64,000 nucleotides of DNA from Patescibacteria group bacterium (GCA_038063455.1 JBBTVB010000005.1:67482-131481); one strand, 5' to 3'; shown: positions 3,707 through 58,210, numbered from the stretch's first letter. Numbers and translations: made by a program. The notes: generated from the letters alone by a model not told the origin.

Positions 3707-3794
3707 TGGCGGAGAGGCAGGGATTCGAACCCTGGATACCTTGCGGTATACTCGCTTTCCAAGCGAGCGCACTAGACCACTATGCGACCTCTCC
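3707..3794 (-). tRNA. tRNA-Ser (anticodon GGA), encoded CCA
   Basis: Minus-strand sequence GGAGAGG-TC-GCAT..AGTGC-G-CTCGC-TTGGAAA-GCGAG-long variable arm-CAGGG-TTCGAAT-CCCTG-CCTCTCC-GCCA folds as a class II cloverleaf. The anticodon loop is TTGGAAA. Confidence 0.9.
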
Positions 3795-4037
3795 AGGTTG
3801 CGCAAACAAATTCTTAAATTGAATTCCACCCTTATACTTTTTTATTCCCAACTCACGACGATATGCCGCGCTTCGGGTTGTGTATGTTTCCGTATAAACT
3901 ACTTTCCAAGGACGATAGGCTTTTGTAGCTTTTACGTCACCACGATTATGTCGGACGAGGCGCGATGACAGGTCGTCAGTATGACCTATATAATGCCGCC
4001 CATTCTGCAAGCTTTTAAGTATATACACGGCGTACAT
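3780..4037 (-). CDS. GIY-YIG nuclease family protein (short URI-domain type)
   Basis: 85 aa from ATG 4037: MYAVYILKSLQNGRHYIGHTDDLSSRLVRHNRG...RELGIKKY, which is the GIY...YIG...R...E motif order. The last 5 codons overlap the 5' end of tRNA-Ser. Confidence 0.8.
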   Translation of the reverse strand: MYAVYILKSLQNGRHYIGHTDDLSSRLVRHNRGDVKATKAYRPWKVVYTETYTTRSAAYRRELGIKKYKGGIQFKNLFAQPGEVA

Positions 4038-4078: not shown

Positions 4079-4113
4079 CAAGCGAGCGCACTCGACCACT
4101 ATGCGACCTCTCC
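4079..4113 (-). repeat. duplicated copy of tRNA-Ser nucleotides 1-35 (5' half up to the anticodon)
   Basis: 4079-4113 matches 3760-3794 at 34 of 35 positions. The single difference (A/C) is in the D-loop. Confidence 0.85.
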
Positions 4114-4192
4114 AAGTGCGGTGCACGCGTACAATAGCGGGTATCTGCTATGCTGTGAAGAGTCACACACTACGCTCACTAACCCAAGCACT

Positions 4193-4883: not shown

Positions 4884-4949
4884 GTGGTGCATGCCCTGTA
4901 CCCGAACCCCGCAAAGCGGGATAAACTCCGTGAGTGGTTCAGGGTAGCC
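4884..4949. repeat. REP-like palindromic element (GTGGTKCATRCCCTG...GGTTCAGGG family)
   Basis: Homologous by eye to 29550-29618, including the internal CCCGC-N-GCGGGATAAACTCCG core. Confidence 0.6.
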
Positions 4950-15655: not shown

Positions 15656-17018
15656 GTATTTTTTCTTGAATGGCGATACTCAGCCACACCAGCATAGCAC
15701 CCGCGCTCAGTGTCCAGAGGTAGTGATCAAAGAGGCCGATGACTAGCAGCGCGGAAAAACTACCCTGCAAAACGAGTGATGCCCAAGTTGGGTGCTGGAG
15801 CGTTTGCAAAAGTTGACGACGGAGCACGGTGAGCAAGAACGCCAGGTAGACCAAACCTCCGATGACGCCAAGCTCCACCACGCTCAACAGGTAGATATTG
15901 TGGACGGGCTGGTAGGCATGCACATTCCCCCGCTCGCGGGTTAGCTGGTCATAGACGGCCACGGGCATATTGCCATAGCCCACACCGCGCAAGGGTTCCA
16001 GTTTAATAAGCGCGTACGCATCCGTAAATTGTTGCTGCCGCTCAGAAATGGACTTCTGCTCCAGCCGACCTGTGGCCTCTGATCGAGCGAGGAATAGCTG
16101 CGGCAAGACCAGCGCCGTAACGCCCGCGATGACCACCATGAACACTGTCCACTTGGCCCACAACCGCCAACCCCAGGGCCAACGCAGGATAAGTAGGAAC
16201 ACAAGCATGACCAACCAGCCCGCGGCAAAGCCAACCCAGCCTGAGCGGGAGAAGGTGAGCAGCAAGCCTAGGAGGAGGATGGTGAGCGTAAGCAGCAGCC
16301 CGGCGATGCGCCAAGCCTGATGGATGTGCCACTTCCTGCCTTCAACATGGCGCCGAACATTTTCCCGCGTCCACGTGGCAAAACCTTTGCGCACGTCGTC
16401 ATACATCCGCAGGTAAAAACCAAAGGTAATAAGCAGCGCGACGGCCAAATACCCGCCCAAAATATTTGGATGCGGCAAACTCCCATAGGCCCGCAGCCAG
16501 CGCATGCCACCGACCTCGACCACGGATGTGCCGCTGAGGCCAGGATCATGGCTAGCTAAACCCAACCACGAAAACGCCGGGCTGGACTGGGTAAAAAATT
16601 GCCCTATACCGAAGAGCGCCTGCAGCACCGCCCCGCCGACAAAACAGGCCAAGAGGAAGGTTGGCTTCACCCATTCCTGCTGCACCACCCACCACAGCAG
16701 CACGCCGAGGACGAACAGTCGCAGGCTGTAGAGCGCCACATCCGAACGGTTGGCAAAAATGAGCGAGCCAAAAATAACCACGCCGAGTGCGCCGATGGCC
16801 AACCACATGCTGCGCGAACCAGCCCGCCGCCGGGGCAGCAGGGCCGCGCCAACCGCGAGGAAGATGAGGAGAATATCGGTAGCGTACAGACTCAACGTCC
16901 CATACTCTGTTGGCGTCGCGCCAATGTGCGGCTGGGCCACAATCAAACGGGTCTGCCATGGCAGCAGGGCCACGTACAGCCCGAGACCAAACCCCAGCCA
17001 GCGCGCGATGCGGTTCAT
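15645..17018 (-). CDS. O-antigen ligase (Wzy_C)-family membrane protein
   Basis: 457 aa, polytopic, with the LLTFSRSGWVGFAAG motif. Overlaps the downstream gene by 11 nt and the upstream gene by 4 nt, which suggests an operon. Confidence 0.65.
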   Translation of the reverse strand: MNRIARWLGFGLGLYVALLPWQTRLIVAQPHIGATPTEYGTLSLYATDILLIFLAVGAALLPRRRAGSRSMWLAIGALGVVIFGSLIFANRSDVALYSLRLFVLGVLLWWVVQQEWVKPTFLLACFVGGAVLQALFGIGQFFTQSSPAFSWLGLASHDPGLSGTSVVEVGGMRWLRAYGSLPHPNILGGYLAVALLITFGFYLRMYDDVRKGFATWTRENVRRHVEGRKWHIHQAWRIAGLLLTLTILLLGLLLTFSRSGWVGFAAGWLVMLVFLLILRWPWGWRLWAKWTVFMVVIAGVTALVLPQLFLARSEATGRLEQKSISERQQQFTDAYALIKLEPLRGVGYGNMPVAVYDQLTRERGNVHAYQPVHNIYLLSVVELGVIGGLVYLAFLLTVLRRQLLQTLQHPTWASLVLQGSFSALLVIGLFDHYLWTLSAGAMLVWLSIAIQEKIHAR

Positions 17019-18061
17019 ATGCCCAGAGCCGCACAGCGGGCGCGGAATTGCCTGGCATACTCGTCGCGCCGGTCATTGTCGTGGAACTTGAGCATGGTGT
17101 TGTTGAGGACGACGCGCGTGTCCTGATTGGCAAGCGTGCGCAGTGCTGGCGGCAAGCGCTGTTGCTGGAACCGTTCGGCCCACCGCTCGAACCACGCACT
17201 GGCGACCAGTGCTTCGAGCATCGGTTGAACAAACAATGCGCGCAGCCGGCGCTGCTCGGCAATTGCCCGGGGTGCGGCATTGGGCAACGCGGCTGCAGCC
17301 CAGGGGTTGGCCTGCCAGAGTTTTTCCAGAAGCCCCTGCGGGTCGTACAGTGGCACCAGCGTGGCCAGCCACATGGTGAAGTATGGGTCATCCGCATTCC
17401 GCACCGCACGCAGGTCACCAACGTCTTGGGTGATAAAAAAGGACAAGCAGACTTTATCCGCCCGGTTGCCAACCTGCGGCCGGAGCTTGCGCAGCTGCGC
17501 CCAACCTGCCGCGAAGAGCCGCGCGGTCCATACATGGCCGGGTGAGGTTATGATGAAAACATCAATGTCGCTTTCGGCACGCGCGTTCGATGTAGCCAAA
17601 GAGTTGCACACGGCCACGGCCCGGACGAAAGGCAAACGCGCAAGCACGCGCGCAAACTTTTTTGCGCGACCAAACTTGAGCAAGGCCAAACGGTAACGCC
17701 CCTGCCGCGTAGCGACAATGCCTTGCTGGCCTTTGAGAAAATAAAAGCCACTCTGCTGTTGAAGTTTCTCCTGTAACAGCGGACTTTTCACAAGCCCCTC
17801 CTCTACTGCTCTATAGCTATACACATTGTCATTGCGAGGGGTAGCAACGACGACCTGCCCGCCATCGCCTTCGGCGAAGCCGAGGCCGGCGGGAGCAATC
17901 TTGCTTTGCGCTGTATCAACAAGATTGCCACGTCCCGCTGCTGCGGGACTCGCAATGACAGAAGCAAACCCCCACTTCCATACTTCCCATGCGGTCAGCG
18001 GATAGCTAAACATGTCGAAGTAGGCAACGGTGCGCAGGATCGCTTGTTCCAGCGGATTCAT
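17015..18061 (-). CDS. hypothetical protein with polymerase-beta-type nucleotidyltransferase-like motif
   Basis: 348 aa. AVCNSLATSNARAESDIDVFIIT resembles the GS...DxD NTase motif. It contains an in-frame palindromic-element insertion (listed as the next feature). Confidence 0.5.
   Translation of the reverse strand: MNPLEQAILRTVAYFDMFSYPLTAWEVWKWGFASVIASPAAAGRGNLVDTAQSKIAPAGLGFAEGDGGQVVVATPRNDNVYSYRAVEEGLVKSPLLQEKLQQQSGFYFLKGQQGIVATRQGRYRLALLKFGRAKKFARVLARLPFVRAVAVCNSLATSNARAESDIDVFIITSPGHVWTARLFAAGWAQLRKLRPQVGNRADKVCLSFFITQDVGDLRAVRNADDPYFTMWLATLVPLYDPQGLLEKLWQANPWAAAALPNAAPRAIAEQRRLRALFVQPMLEALVASAWFERWAERFQQQRLPPALRTLANQDTRVVLNNTMLKFHDNDRRDEYARQFRARCAALGI
17828..17959. mobile_element. palindromic MITE/RPE-like element, type A (GTCATTGCGAG...CTCGCAATGAC), inserted in frame in a CDS
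   Basis: Perfect 11-bp terminal inverted repeats. Length 132 bp, i.e. 44 codons (VIASPAAAGRGN...ATPRND). The first ~70 nt are homologous to the uvrC copy. Confidence 0.75.
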
Positions 18062-21699: not shown

Positions 21700-21819
21700 T
21701 TTGCGAACGCGGACGAATCGACAGTACCGATTCCAGCTGTTGTCGAGCACATTGCGGTTGAGGTTCCGCCCGTTGTCGTTGAGGTAGACGTACGCAACGT
21801 CACCACCGGCAACCGTACC
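21700..21819 (-). repeat. DGR template repeat TR2
   Basis: 120 bp matching VR2 (22195-22314). It encodes Asn-rich ...VYLNDNGRNLNRNVLDNSWNRYCRFVRVRK. 15 of the 16 differences are at TR adenines on the minus strand. Confidence 0.85.
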
Positions 21820-22191: not shown

Positions 22192-22767
22192 CTACTTGCG
22201 AACGCGGACGAATCGACAGTACCGATTCCAGCTGCGGCCGAGCACAATGCGGCGGAGGTCCCGCCCGCCGCCGTGGAGGCCGACGTACGCAACGCCACCA
22301 CCGGCAACCGCACCCAGGCAGACGATTGGCGATTCACCAAGGTCGGCCTTTGTGTCTGGAACTGCGTCCAGGTAGGTCTCGCTGTCGGCACGATCCAGGG
22401 GACGGAACCTCGGTTCATTCTGCCAGTCCACCACCTCCTGGGTGGTCGGCTCGTGGTCAAAAATTTTCACGTCGTACGCAACTTCCCGCACCCCCGGAAC
22501 GATTGGGAAGTCTACAACCGACAAGCTCGTATTAACGTAGTAGTAATCCTTCTTGCGGATGGACTGCCAACGTGGGTCATCACCGTTGACGGTCAGGATG
22601 GTTGGCATGGCAAAGGGGTTCTTCCCCTGTGCGAAGAGCTCTAACTGCCGCTTCGTAATTATCCGCTTCTTCACCTTGGTGATAATATCGATAATTAACC
22701 CGAGGCAATCGTCCGCACCCAAGCGCTCGTCGTCCGGCACGTTTCCGACCATGTTCTTGTTTGCCAT
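22192..22767 (-). CDS. DGR target (variable) protein 2
   Basis: 191 aa from ATG 22767 (AAGGAG ribosome-binding site 7 nt upstream; the tracked ORF extends to 22791). The C-terminal 40 aa are VR2. No signal peptide or TM helix is visible. Confidence 0.8.
   Translation of the reverse strand: MANKNMVGNVPDDERLGADDCLGLIIDIITKVKKRIITKRQLELFAQGKNPFAMPTILTVNGDDPRWQSIRKKDYYYVNTSLSVVDFPIVPGVREVAYDVKIFDHEPTTQEVVDWQNEPRFRPLDRADSETYLDAVPDTKADLGESPIVCLGAVAGGGVAYVGLHGGGRDLRRIVLGRSWNRYCRFVRVRK
22195..22314 (-). repeat. DGR variable repeat VR2
   Basis: The 3'-terminal 120 bp of the CDS, abutting the TAG stop. Aligned to TR2 with adenine-restricted substitutions. Confidence 0.85.
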
Positions 22768-23606: not shown

Positions 23607-25493
23607 ATGTCCCCTGCCCTCCGCCGCCAACTCCAAACCCTGCCTGCTAAGCCAGGGGTGTACACCTATTTCGATGCCAAGGGTGACGTGCTGTACGTGG
23701 GCAAAGCGACAAGTTTAAAATCCCGCGTATCGTCCTACTTCACCAAAAAGAACGGCTTAACCCCGGCAAAGAAAATCATGGTCAGCAAGATTGTACGGCT
23801 GGAAACCATTGTCACCAGCAGCGAGACCGAGGCGCTGATGCTGGAAACTACGCGCATCAAGACCCTGCACCCGCCGTACAACATTGTGATGCGGGATGAT
23901 AAGAATTTTCTCTTTATCAAAGTTGCGCTGGCCGAAGCCTACCCCAGCGTCACCACGGTCCGCCGCCTGACCAAAGATGGCTCGCGCTACTTTGGGCCGT
24001 ACGTCTCGGCGGGGGCCGTGTACACCACGCTCAAGCTGCTCAAAAAAATCTTCCCCTACAAAAACTGTAGCAACCCACCAGACAAACCCTGCTTTGAATT
24101 CCACCTGCACCGCTGCCTGGGTCATGGCACCGATGCCGCCAGCCAGGAACGCTACCGAAAAATTATCCATGACCTCATGCACTTCTTGCGCGGTGACACC
24201 AAGGATGTGCGGAAGGAGTTGGAGAAGCAGATGAAGCTCGCTAGCCAGAAACGACAATTTGAAAAGGCCGCTGTCGCCCGCGACCGCGTGTTTGCTATAA
24301 ATAAACTGATGCAGCAGCAGAATGCCATCATGCCCGCGGCCGTGAACCTAGATTGTATTGGCTACGCCACGGTGGGGAGCTTGGCCGCTGTGAATCGCTT
24401 ACTCATTCGGAATGGCAAAATCCTGGATCGCCAAACCTTTTTGTTGCAACACGTGCAGGATGAACCAGCGCCGGTGGTCCTGGCCAGTTTTATGGAACAA
24501 TTTTACAGCCAAGTCACCGACCCGCCGGAAAAAATTGCTCTACCTTTTGCCCTCGTGCTATCCCCGGCGTTCCATAGCGCGGTTGATGCCGAGACTTTTA
24601 CTCCGCAGCGCGGCCGGTTGAAGAAACTCATGAAAGTGAGTGAGTTGAATGCCACGGAATTCCTGCGCCAGCAAAAAGCCAGTTTTGAAAAAGACGACGT
24701 CCGCCTGCTCAAAGGTTTGCGCGAACTTGCTACAGCCCTAAACCTATCCGAAGCGCCAAAACGTATTGAAGCCTTTGACGTGGCGAATGTCCAAGGCGAG
24801 CACGCCACCGGCAGCATGGTGACGTTTGTGAATGGCCGCCCGGAAAAAAAGTGGTATCGGCGCTTCACCATAAAAACCGTACAGGGTTCCAATGACCCGG
24901 CGATGATGGCGGAAATGCTCACTCGGCGATTTGGCCACGCTTCCTCTGTCATTGCGAGCCCCGCACCAGCGGGGCGCGGCAATCCTGCTGATGTAGCGAA
25001 GGGCAAGATTGCTTCGTCGTCCCGTGTCAGCGGGACTCCTCGCAATGACACATGGCCCCTGCCTGACCTTATTATTCTAGACGGCGGTGCAGGGCAGCTG
25101 AGCGTGGTTACCCGGGCGCTGGGTAAAATCCATGTGCCGATTGTTGCCCTGGCCAAAGCCGGCCACGCCCACGAACCCCAGCAGGGCGACCGCGAACGCA
25201 TCTTCCGCATTGGCAAACCGCCGGTGAAATTACCCAACCCGTCGGACGGTTTGTTTCTGATTGAGCGCATCCGCGACGAAGCGCACCGCTTTACCATTGC
25301 CGGTTACCGCGGCAAGCACCGCAAGGCCAGCATCGGCTCGGCGCTCGATACCATTTCCGGGGTTGGACCAACGATGAAAAAGAAACTCTTAAAAACCTTT
25401 GGCTCGGTGGCAAAAATCCGTCAGGCGGCGGAAGATGATGTGGCAAAGGTGGTTGGGCCGAAGCTGGCGAAAACGTTGCAAGAAAAACTATAG
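23607..25493 (+). CDS. uvrC: excinuclease ABC subunit C
   Basis: 628 aa with an N-terminal GIY-YIG domain (PGVYTYFDAKGDVLYVGKA...), a UVR domain, an endonuclease domain and a C-terminal (HhH)2. It contains a 34-codon palindromic-element insert. Confidence 0.95.
   Translation: MSPALRRQLQTLPAKPGVYTYFDAKGDVLYVGKATSLKSRVSSYFTKKNGLTPAKKIMVSKIVRLETIVTSSETEALMLETTRIKTLHPPYNIVMRDDKNFLFIKVALAEAYPSVTTVRRLTKDGSRYFGPYVSAGAVYTTLKLLKKIFPYKNCSNPPDKPCFEFHLHRCLGHGTDAASQERYRKIIHDLMHFLRGDTKDVRKELEKQMKLASQKRQFEKAAVARDRVFAINKLMQQQNAIMPAAVNLDCIGYATVGSLAAVNRLLIRNGKILDRQTFLLQHVQDEPAPVVLASFMEQFYSQVTDPPEKIALPFALVLSPAFHSAVDAETFTPQRGRLKKLMKVSELNATEFLRQQKASFEKDDVRLLKGLRELATALNLSEAPKRIEAFDVANVQGEHATGSMVTFVNGRPEKKWYRRFTIKTVQGSNDPAMMAEMLTRRFGHASSVIASPAPAGRGNPADVAKGKIASSSRVSGTPRNDTWPLPDLIILDGGAGQLSVVTRALGKIHVPIVALAKAGHAHEPQQGDRERIFRIGKPPVKLPNPSDGLFLIERIRDEAHRFTIAGYRGKHRKASIGSALDTISGVGPTMKKKLLKTFGSVAKIRQAAEDDVAKVVGPKLAKTLQEKL
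24948..25049. mobile_element. palindromic MITE/RPE-like element, type A, inserted in frame in uvrC
   Basis: GTCATTGCGAG at 24948-24958 and CTCGCAATGAC at 25039-25049 are perfect inverted repeats. Length 102 bp, i.e. 34 codons (V448-D481, VIASPAPAGRGNPADVAKGKIASSSRVSGTPRND). Internal sub-hairpins are present. Confidence 0.8.
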
Positions 25494-29268: not shown

Positions 29269-29355
29269 GGGCGAGTGGCGGAACTGGTAGACGCACTGGC
29301 TTCAGGAGCCAGCGACCGCAAGGTCATGGAGGTTCGAGTCCTCTCTCGCCCACCA
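29269..29355 (+). tRNA. tRNA-Leu (anticodon CAG), encoded CCA
   Basis: GGGCGAG-TG-GCG..CGC-A-CTGGC-TTCAGGA-GCCAG-variable arm-GGAGG-TTCGAGT-CCTCT-CTCGCCC-ACCA folds as a class II cloverleaf. Confidence 0.9.
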
Positions 29356-29618
29356 TGAACCACTCACTTTGTTCGGGTTCATGGCGAGCCACAACGTATA
29401 GCTACGTACTCGCCGTAAATCTAAATGAAGTGCGTGGTTCATGCCCTGAATCGGAGGCCGGAGGCCGACTGGTTCAGGGCAGACCTCATTCGACCCCAGG
29501 CATGAATCACTCCTTTATTCGGGTTTCCCAGCAAACCCAAGTGAAGCCGGTGGTTCATACCCTGTACCCGAGCCCCGCCGTCAGCGGGATAAACTCCGCG
29601 AGAGGTTCAGGGCAGCCC
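29353..29618. repeat. cluster of REP-like palindromic units downstream of tRNA-Leu
   Basis: Two alternating unit types, each present twice: CATGAAYCACTC...TTCGGGTT, and GTGGTTCATRCCCTG...GGTTCAGGGCAG. The last unit (29550-29618) is homologous to 4884-4949. Confidence 0.6.
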
Positions 29619-31434: not shown

Positions 31435-31523
31435 GTCATCCTGAAGCCTGCAGGCTGAAGGATCTCCCAGGGTAGAATGAAGGGAGATTCTTCGCTCGGC
31501 CGAAAGGTCTCACTCAGAATGAC
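31435..31523. repeat. palindromic element, type B (GTCATCCTGA...TCAGAATGAC), intergenic
   Basis: 89 bp with imperfect terminal inverted repeats related to type A at the GTCAT/ATGAC ends. The internal GAGATTCTTCGCTC motif is typical of such elements. Confidence 0.65.
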
Positions 31524-57850: not shown

Positions 57851-58210
57851 ATGACCAAAGAAGCAGAACCTACAATTAGCGATGTTTTGGCAGCAATTCA
57901 TAGCTCTGCTGAACATACCGAGGCGCGCATGGTTACCAAGGAGTACCTAGAAAAACGGCTGCAAAAGTTAGAAATCGCCATGGTCACCAAAGACTACCTA
58001 GAGAAACGCCTGCAAAAGTTCCAGACCACCATGGTAACCAAAGACTACTTGGACACCAAGTTGGCAAACCTGGAAGGCAACCTAATCGTACTAACGCGCA
58101 AAGAAGACCAGAAGCTCCATACCCTGGTGGATATTCTCCATGACAAGCAAGTTATTGATGATGCCGACGTCCGGAGAGTAGAACGTTTGGAGCCATTCGC
58201 TCGCTCGTAA
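57851..58210 (+). CDS. hypothetical coiled-coil protein with three tandem 17-aa repeats
   Basis: 119 aa with the unit MVTK(E/D)YL(E/D)(K/T)(R/K)L... repeated three times. Confidence 0.55.
   Translation: MTKEAEPTISDVLAAIHSSAEHTEARMVTKEYLEKRLQKLEIAMVTKDYLEKRLQKFQTTMVTKDYLDTKLANLEGNLIVLTRKEDQKLHTLVDILHDKQVIDDADVRRVERLEPFARS

Follow-up and report, generated by a model that had tools for sequence, protein, structure and literature searches.

A likely REP-type inverted dimer carried in frame by the uvrC gene of a Patescibacteria group bacterium

In a window of 64,000 nucleotides from a Patescibacteria group bacterium (GCA_038063455.1, JBBTVB010000005.1:67482-131481; "window" denotes this whole stretch throughout), the uvrC gene contains a palindromic element whose 102-bp core adds 34 codons without closing the reading frame. 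The termini of this element recur in many bacterial phyla and in viral contigs, covariation indicates that each of its halves pairs within itself, and close orthologues of the gene carry the whole element, half of it or none. We consider it quite likely that the segment is a non-autonomous inverted dimer of the repetitive extragenic palindromic (REP) type, situated on the margin of the REP superfamily that bears CGTC tags (Di Nocera, De Gregorio & Rocco 2013, BMC Genomics 14:522; PMC3733652) and persisting as a tolerated in-frame loop. The host gene and the parts of the element are as follows:

23607..25493, + strand: uvrC, the host gene (628 aa), a complete open reading frame (ORF) with its Pfam domains
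24947..25050, + strand: palindromic element (inverted dimer), recognized by its 12-nt perfect inverted repeat, fold scores and family membership
24948-25049: core of the element, 102 bp, uvrC codons 448-481
24947..24986, + strand: left REP-like unit with tag TGTC and tail CCT, from sequence and hairpin arms
24987..25006, + strand: variable spacer between both units, the part least conserved among orthologous copies
25007..25050, - strand: right REP-like unit, inverted, with tag TGTC, from sequence, hairpin arms and covariation

An initial annotation, made from the sequence alone, had described perfect 11-nt terminal inverted repeats (GTCATTGCGAG at 24948-24958 and CTCGCAATGAC at 25039-25049), three internal sub-hairpins, and a stop-free segment of 3n length occupying codons 448-481. 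The repeats are in fact 12 nt long (TGTCATTGCGAG at 24947-24958 and CTCGCAATGACA at 25039-25050), and all three hairpins were found in their places, namely CGAGCCCCGC/GCGGGGCGCG (24955-64 and 24969-78, 90% complementary), GCAATCCTGC/GCAAGATTGC (24979-88 and 25003-12, 90% complementary) and GTCCCG/CGGGAC (25019-24 and 25031-36, 100% complementary). The position, length and open frame are confirmed by the translation, VIASPAPAGRGNPADVAKGKIASSSRVSGTPRND. Within the left unit, a basal stem is formed by ATTGC (24951-55) and GCAAT (24979-83) around the apical hairpin CCCCGC-ACCA-GCGGGG (24959-74); in the right unit, the ATTGC/GCAAT stem lies at 25042-46 and 25008-12 of the + strand, with GTCCCG-TGTCAG-CGGGAC (25019-36) as its apical hairpin. 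The element folds to -33.6 kcal/mol as DNA (z -6.4) and to -59.2 kcal/mol as RNA (z -6.8), and across this copy and the second copy described below, DNA or RNA folding against shuffled sequences gives z-scores from -5.7 to -7.2. The terminal 11-mer occurs four times exactly in the window and six times with at most one mismatch (1.15 expected), a count of six that was reached in none of 100 shuffles.

A scan of the element against Rfam returned nothing above gathering thresholds (one chance sub-threshold match to HgcC scored 14 bits against 50), and four element peptides matched no Pfam or NCBIfam family, even at E-values up to 10. A text search of the literature for GTCATTGCGAG, CTCGCAATGAC and the inner motifs retrieved unrelated primer matches only. 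Peptide searches, with queries that are too short for databases of this size, were negative as well: phmmer with the 34-aa insert gave no hit among 1.84 billion representatives, a profile built from five element peptides yielded 50 candidates of which none was significant, and the insert peptide of a Xanthobacter UvrC, discussed at the end, found nothing.

The host protein is a complete UvrC, in which Pfam recognizes GIY-YIG, UVR, UvrC_RNaseH, UvrC_RNaseH_dom (residues 376-564, spanning the insert) and HHH_5; the GIY-YIG, UVR, both RNase H-like and the HhH domains are thus present, and the protein is 100% identical to one named UvrC by NCBI from a 'Patescibacteria group bacterium' metagenome-assembled genome (MAG). 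An alignment of 31 UvrC homologues shows D391, D492 and H560 to be invariant and places the insert in the linker between the RRF motif and W-PLPDLIILDGG; in the structural model described below, its neighbours are helix 430-443 and strand 488-492, which bears the invariant DGG aspartate, D492. Alignment of the window protein to solved C-terminal halves of UvrC (3c65 and 2nrt) yields two blocks, and the break between them falls exactly on the insert, where the solved chains have 5 residues and the window UvrC has 38. Across 120 UvrC homologues, the linker measures 10-56 residues (10-16 in 55 of the 120), the commonest lengths being 10, 13 and 15; without its 34 codons, the window linker would be 12 residues long, within the common range, as had been expected when it was proposed that deletion restores a short linker. 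Structure modelling, suggested at the same time as a check, predicts the insert to be a disordered coil between secondary-structure elements: in the AlphaFold2 model of UvrC (mean predicted local distance difference test score, pLDDT, 81), residues 449-481 have a pLDDT below 50 and no secondary structure, and the structural elements on either side are modelled confidently.

Outside the window, the family was sought in one-genome-per-species references as an exact pair of termini 50-80 nt apart. At least 120 loci in at least nine phyla carry this pair, the matches listed including Alpha-, Beta- and Gammaproteobacteria, Desulfobacterota, Bacteroidota, Chloroflexi, Planctomycetota, Cyanobacteria, a Moduliflexus MAG and three Patescibacteria. 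At least 120 loci with the exact pair are likewise present in IMG/VR viral contigs, and the right-arm probe GCGGGACTCCTCGCAATGAC, an arm common to copies at other sites in relatives, occurs at no fewer than 120 loci in metagenomes. Copies are abundant elsewhere. The arms resemble one another beyond the termini imposed by the search, reading GTCATTGCGAG-CGNAGCGAA-GCAATCCAG, i.e., GTCATTGCGAG-CG(N)AGCGAA-GCAATCCAG, or carrying the longer GAGCGAAGCGACGAA. In the apical motif GCGNAGC, N is the sole freely varying base; in work attributed to Hirao and co-workers, such an N is reportedly the middle base, free of constraint, in a DNA mini-hairpin of unusual stability. The window copies have a longer GC hairpin in place of this motif.

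Of 137 copies, 89 (65%) have a C and 41 (30%) a T immediately before GTCATTGCGAG, giving CGTC or TGTC, and a mirror-image G or A follows the opposite terminus, which lengthens the palindrome by one or two pyrimidine/purine pairs; in the window, each end of both canonical copies is TGTC. Over the same 137 copies, target-site duplications of 2-8 bp are at or below chance level, except for a single 7-bp match. In the surroundings of 240 loci, 1,924 ORFs within 1.5 kb of copies were clustered, and ten of the twelve most widespread neighbour clusters were annotated with Pfam: eight are phage or gene-transfer-agent structural proteins and two have no match. No transposase, RAYT-like ones included, is among these ten annotated clusters. 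In viral contigs, family copies are also placed between the head and the tail genes of clusters that resemble gene-transfer agents. Among curated plasmids and phages, matches are confined to six alphaproteobacterial megaplasmids and five partial phage hits, which points to no clear vector.

Covariation among 329 non-redundant family elements places the pairing within each arm. Base 6 of the terminus and its partner in the GC(A/G)AT motif of the same arm are T-A in 564 cases, C-G in 16, T-G in 6 and C-A in none (Fisher p about 1e-26), and wherever one terminus is C-type (18 elements), that of the opposite arm is T-type. Both this covariation and the variants ATCCT/AGGAT and ATTCT/AGAAT back the ATTGC...GCAAT stem in each arm. 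The motif GCAAT, present in about 230 of 264 arms, is followed by CCAG in 96 and by CCAT in 24, and the tails of the window copies are CCT and CTT. Because the covariation lies within arms and not between the two termini, it indicates that each arm is probably a hairpin unit with a (C/T)GTC tag, an ATTGC...GCAAT stem and a CCA tail, and that two such units, inverted relative to each other, make up the element as a dimer. The unit comprises a 5-bp basal stem around 9-20 nt that contain either GCGNAGC or a 6-bp GC hairpin with a loop of 4-6 nt. Single units also exist, as the half alleles of uvrC described next and as partnerless units in metagenomes, 37 of 49 of which retain the inner motif.

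Among 14 orthologues of about 83-89% identity in the 31-homologue alignment, the element's position in the linker is occupied in different ways. The full element is found in P0001-3 and about half of it in P0004, P0007, P0008 and P0012; the linker is empty in P0005, P0006 and P0009, where it reads HAKDATHSW, and holds unrelated peptides in P0010, P0011, P0013 and P0014. Linker DNA was retrieved for eight homologues of the alignment. Full alleles begin after ...CTCT and stop before (A/G)NN-TGG, the half allele corresponds precisely to a single arm (the left unit), and the unrelated peptides are encoded by three other nested palindromes, e.g., CCCCCTCTCCCCTTGCGGGAGAGGG...GGGGTGAGGGGG, translated as SPLAGEGLGVRG:

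L126 10001-11824, L127 1568-3430 and L128 10001-11866 (gene coordinates): other palindromes, mutually unrelated, in the same uvrC linker

The linker states are interleaved on a star-like tree of the close orthologues, from which gains and losses are not countable. Single left units match particular dimer alleles, that of P0012 resembling P0002 and those of P0004, P0007 and P0008 resembling P0001, and this resemblance of monomers to different dimers suggests that changes between dimer and monomer may have occurred more than once at the linker. A possible remnant of the right terminus in the empty allele (CGCGAAAGACGCC versus CGCAAAGACGCG) does not carry enough weight for a claim. SPLxGEGxGVRG-type peptides are seen again at the linker in several more distant UvrC proteins of the Candidate Phyla Radiation (CPR), namely P0022, P0028, P0045 and P0058.

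The insertion had been called lineage-specific. This stands insofar as orthologues vary between full, half and empty states; it does not stand for the element itself, whose termini are found in no fewer than nine phyla, as well as in viral contigs. As the sign of an ancestral rather than inserted segment, a homologue of it at the same position in distant taxa had been named, and formally one exists: a Doudnabacteria UvrC of only 40% identity carries a canonical 69-bp family copy in the same linker. Because many intermediate lineages are without the element, an ancestral origin nevertheless appears unlikely, and independent hits on a permissive or hotspot loop would fit these sequences better.

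Copies within genes follow rules of length and frame. In flanks below 55% GC, a range in which long ORFs carry information, 13 of 130 copies are embedded, i.e., have a frame open for at least 60 codons on both sides, and 11 of these 13 have a 3n length, compared with 38 of the 117 others (Fisher p=3.9e-4); taken together, the family copies listed have no bias in length modulo 3. A TGA within CTCGCAATGAC closes one of the three frames in every case, and the VIA...RND frame is used by 10 of the 11 embedded 3n copies. The in-frame hosts include UvrC, the 348-aa protein described below, UvrA, GMP synthase (GuaA), GAPDH, a radical-SAM activase, a penicillin-binding protein (in the SLR...LAMT frame), large surface proteins bearing several copies and a phage portal protein:

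L347 5727-5810: in-frame family copy of 84 bp near the C-terminus of the phage portal protein gene

Since genic copies obey the 3n, no-stop and frame rules, they argue that ribosomes would read through the element, which would be neither spliced out nor bypassed. Two or three family copies each stand within a single long ORF in L151 and L158.

Besides the uvrC copy, the window contains two further copies, and a search for termini with at most two mismatches and a peptide-motif scan found none beyond these three:

17828..17959, - strand: second copy, 132 bp or 44 codons, in frame in the ORF at 17015-18061 (-)
31435..31523, strand not assigned: third copy, 89 bp, an intergenic variant 5 nt after the RNase J stop codon

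The second copy, a homologue of the uvrC element that the initial annotation had already placed in another gene, is thus confirmed with its 44 codons in frame. Its host is a 348-aa protein without a Pfam match. Although it lies on the opposite DNA strand to the uvrC copy, it is read in the same element frame (VIASPAAAGRGN...TPRND compared with VIASPAPAGRGN...TPRND), and its DNA fold scores are z -5.7 and -6.7. Orthologues of this gene lack the element in L121 (307 aa) and L122 (303 aa) and contain it in L123 (350 aa) and L191. The L191 copy, at the same site as 17828-17959, has an interior that is inverted relative to the window and L123. The third copy ends in GTCATCCTGAAG and CTCAGAATGAC, folds with z -3.0 and has the within-arm stems ATCCT/AGGAT and ATTCT/AGAAT, which are compensated changes; at the RNase J site, L121 and L123 have canonical copies and L122 has the same variant as the window.

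In the reading that we regard as quite likely, two inverted (C/T)GTC-tagged hairpin units would face each other across a short spacer, and a trans-acting protein recognizing hairpins in single-stranded DNA would mobilize them, by analogy with GTAG REPs and their RAYT transposases. The insert would then persist at a linker that is naturally variable in length, between helix 430-443 and the D492 strand of the RNase H-like endonuclease domain, with a 3n length and a single hydrophilic, stop-free frame (VIA...RND). Given this combination of variable linker, length and frame, the insert is most likely transcribed and translated as a disordered loop of 34 residues, rich in Ala, Ser, Gly, Pro and Arg, that UvrC tolerates with a presumably near-neutral effect. 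Over evolution, the site would turn over between dimer, single unit, no element and other palindromes.

Several observations weigh against this reading. When the window, L123 and L124 are compared, identity in uvrC amounts to about 88% for the protein, 53% for third codon positions and 49% for fourfold sites, whereas the uvrC elements are 86-87% identical over aligned positions, with values that are flat by codon position (84/90/84% and 85/91/85%) and higher at paired bases (92%) than at unpaired ones (68-74%). In the case of the second gene, the element is 84% identical, compared with 29% at fourfold sites and 63% for the protein. Passive junk should decay, yet these copies remain 84-87% identical beside fourfold sites at 29-49%; something keeps or renews them. 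Any of three processes may account for the excess: structural selection, gene conversion among copies, or repeated insertion at one spot. As regards the dimer model, the whole element reaches its energy minimum as a cloverleaf that the terminal repeat closes, and this fold surpasses the two-unit fold by 6.6 kcal/mol (as DNA), so that thermodynamics alone does not favour arm-wise pairing; moreover, few events may have produced the C-type terminus variant from which most of the covariation signal comes. The unit itself, with a 5-bp stem, an internal loop and an apical hairpin, differs from the CGTC REPs, which have a contiguous stem of 8-9 bp and a loop of 4-5 nt (PMC3733652). Neither genic locus offers a clean filled/empty pair that would define the exact insertion boundaries and any target motif: the flanks differ (HASS|...|TW versus HAKDATHSW in uvrC). 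Translation of the uvrC insert into protein is, for its part, what we infer.

The conservation data feed directly into the alternative that the element is not passive, its DNA or RNA hairpin structure being selected, with effects on mRNA stability, translation pausing or local DNA topology, or its sequence being renewed by site-specific re-insertion or gene conversion. Such an alternative would add to the tolerated-dimer reading rather than replace it. Beyond the excess identity at both loci, its lack of codon periodicity and the advantage of paired bases, it draws on the compensated changes in the stems and on the family copy at the same linker of a UvrC only 40% identical. Nevertheless, close relatives without the element, or with unrelated palindromes at the site, show that no specific function is required there; a half allele that is unable to form the outer stem still agrees with the window copy at 36 positions out of 42 (about 86%); copies at different loci resemble each other in a mosaic fashion, which points to homogenization rather than selection; and no Rfam family matches. 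We regard this alternative as unlikely. Far less probable is a classical MITE (miniature inverted-repeat transposable element), arisen from an insertion sequence by deletion and mobilized through a DDE transposase acting on the 11-12-bp terminal repeats. The perfect TG...CA termini, the small size and the many dispersed copies would suit it; the model was rejected, however, on account of the absence of target-site duplications beyond chance in 137 copies and of termini that do not covary together, each covarying instead with the inner motif of its own arm. Single arms that occur alone and the lack of a recurrent transposase gene, in the ten annotated neighbour clusters, adjoining the 240 loci speak against it as well.

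An ancestral or adaptive extension of the UvrC linker, functional at the protein level and only incidentally palindromic as DNA, is highly improbable. The ORF is kept open in several lineages, and some clades, such as Chloroflexi-like homologues, have long conserved linkers here, but the same DNA turns up within another gene, between genes and across hundreds of unrelated genomes, its conservation has no codon periodicity, and the peptide is predicted to be disordered, matches no Pfam or NCBIfam model and is missing from close relatives. It is scarcely more credible that the element is spliced out like an intron or bypassed by the ribosome, yielding UvrC without the 34 residues; indeed, we hold this to be somewhat less probable still. 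Yeast mitochondria, with their byp elements, provide a precedent for ribosomal bypass, an RNA structure of great stability (-59 kcal/mol) does lie in the middle of the ORF, and a few non-3n copies are found in open frames. Removal or bypass would, however, impose no 3n, stop-free or frame rule, and genic copies obey all three; Rfam contains no matching intron or ribozyme family, and R. conorii proteins decorated with the Rickettsia palindromic element (RPE) RPE-1 are expressed in vivo (PMC3733652). As the source is a MAG and repeats are prone to misassembly, a chimeric contig or a collapsed repeat could be imagined, but the chance of such an assembly or binning artefact is negligible. The insertion is at the same codon, with lineage-specific differences, in independent assemblies from different samples (L123, GCA_030689605.1; L124, ENA ERZ18667691), the reading frame is intact, and synteny is kept through a Wzy-like gene, the second gene, csrA, uvrA, uvrC, secG, SBP and RNase J.

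Other features were noted in and around these genes. In the same domain, UvrC contains a second insertion, one that is specific to this clade, AGHAHEPQQGDRE, at about 25158-25193 (residues ~518-529; pLDDT below 50), which is not a repeat, is present in all homologues of at least 62% identity and is absent from more distant UvrC proteins. In the variable uvrA-uvrC spacer, a direct repeat of 119 nt (87% identical) lies at 21701-21819 and 22196-22314, and relatives have different small genes in this spacer, including a HicA-like toxin. UvrA of relatives contains an insert of 30-42 residues (SGVHPAKGENIG...SSPEL), which is absent from the window UvrA and from L121; the uvrA genes with it are L122 5978-8923, L123 2861-5806, L126 6280-9318 and L128 6645-9671. 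This insert was considered as a further element and rejected, since it is not significantly palindromic (z about -1); the L126 UvrA insert contains an extra palindromic piece of 12 codons. A structured repeat of about 65 nt, GTGGTNCATNCCCTG...CCCCGC..GCGGGATAAACTCCG..GGTTCAGGG, occurs at 4884-4949, 29434-29480 and 29550-29617, with all three copies near tRNA genes (tRNA-Ser 3707-3794 and tRNA-Leu 29269-29355) and no Rfam match. A 39-nt stretch of tRNA-Ser is duplicated at 95% identity (3760-3798 and 4079-4117, 319 nt apart), a pattern that an integration at this gene may have left as its scar. Finally, three tandem 51-nt (17-codon) repeats are located at 57928-58080, 61-80% identical to the first.

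The behaviour of the element within genes is already known from Rickettsia and from other REP-type repeats, and it is not a new kind of element. What is new is the host group, the CPR, together with a family that keeps the same termini over many phyla and viral contigs, and a UvrC linker that acts as a permissive spot or hotspot for several palindromic families. Selfish DNA carried within genes that encode proteins now reaches the CPR, whose small, gene-dense genomes offer a mobile hairpin little intergenic landing space. A few residues before DGG, the UvrC linker has received at least four unrelated palindromic families, with dimer, monomer and empty states in close relatives, and it constitutes a natural experiment for loop tolerance and protein-length evolution. 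Annotators and structure predictors should treat peptides such as VIAS...PRND and SPLxGEGxGVRG with caution. Meanwhile, the shared termini and the conservation above synonymous level are relevant to the way in which CGTC-type REPs and RPEs, lacking their own transposase, can spread and be maintained. A more far-reaching proposal, which we think rather doubtful, is that a hairpin module common to many phyla is actively kept or renewed at particular sites, by structural selection acting on DNA or RNA, or by repeated, site-specific insertion into the permissive linkers of genes for nucleotide-excision repair. If so, the mobilizing activity would not be encoded beside the element and would possibly be a conserved host or phage enzyme; this would explain the identical termini from Bradyrhizobium to Patescibacteria and phages, the same UvrC codon being used in lineages 40% identical, and copies of 84-87% identity amid saturated synonymous sites.

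A literature search found no paper linking REP or MITE elements with Patescibacteria, and the known systems that come closest are found in other bacteria. Bacterial MITEs that make in-frame fusions include Correia/CREE, ERIC and QMITE1 of Coxiella (PMC10969869; PMC5896051). Like these, the present family is a small non-autonomous repeat with terminal inverted repeats that lands in ORFs and adds peptide segments; MITEs, however, carry target-site duplications and derive from insertion sequences, whereas the present family has no duplication and pairs arm by arm. REPINs are inverted doublets of tagged hairpins without target-site duplication, with singlets as remnants or building blocks, and REPIN/RAYT pairs are usually lineage-specific and vertically inherited. 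REPINs and GTAG REPs are reportedly moved by RAYT (HUH Y1) transposases, in work attributed to Nunvar in 2010, Bertels and Rainey in 2011 and Ton-Hoang in 2012. The present family shares the inverted hairpin doublets that fold into a long hairpin, the singlets and the absence of target-site duplication, and a single-stranded DNA mechanism would be plausible for it; it differs in its tag, which is CGTC/TGTC and not GTAG, and in having the same termini across phyla.

The CGTC REPs offer the nearest match. Their CGTC tag is often TGTC or CCTC, the stem begins with A-T and the tail is CCA; they are found mainly as head-to-head dimers and have no dedicated transposase (PMC3733652). The present family likewise has a (C/T)GTC tag outside the hairpin foot, an A-T stem start and a CCA tail, occurs mostly as inverted dimers with the tags outside, along with single units, and is spread over several phyla in mostly intergenic positions with occasional in-frame copies. 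The absence of a neighbouring transposase here, in the ten neighbour clusters checked, would match the transposase-less state of the CGTC REPs (PMC3733652). In-frame CGTC copies encode 20-45 residues that start with VI.. and end with ..(H/N)D, and repair genes are prominent among their hosts, which include uvrA, uvrB and, with a CGTC-3 dimer, the Xanthobacter autotrophicus uvrC Xaut_2344 (PMC3733652); in the latter UvrC, the insertion covers residues 550-585 of 779. As for differences, Patescibacteria, Chloroflexi, Cyanobacteria and Planctomycetota are outside the five phyla listed for CGTC repeats, and ATTGCGAG, VIAS and PRND are absent from the supplementary tables (PMC3733652). Bradyrhizobium CGTC-1 has loops of differing length (PMC3733652), and the present family might conceivably be identical with one of these variants.

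In the case of the RPEs, the resemblance noted in the initial annotation is sustained by in-frame copies in unrelated genes, by the 3n rule and by a predicted disordered loop between secondary-structure elements. Its further claim, of an RPE-like element in an unrelated lineage, is correct as to the Patescibacteria host, but genic REPs outside Rickettsia had already been published (PMC3733652). As far as the RPE-1 type is described in later accounts (Ogata et al. 2000, Science 290:347; 2002, Genome Res 12:808, as cited in PMC10969869 and PMC3733652), the likeness extends to a palindromic repeat of about 100-150 bp, located in frame in unrelated housekeeping genes, with a peptide compatible with the host fold, in a reduced genome with little intergenic space. 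According to the same accounts, RPE-1 is confined to Rickettsia, whereas the present family is found in many phyla and phages with most copies intergenic, and the RPE-1 peptide has a family model of its own, whereas the present peptides match no NCBIfam or Pfam model. The latter contrast presupposes that the library searched still includes an RPE1 model. The link to RPEs may be more than an analogy, and the element is possibly related to RPE-4 and RPE-6, because CGTC-1 has been equated with Neisseria dRS3 and R. conorii RPE-6, and CGTC-4 with RPE-4 (PMC3733652).

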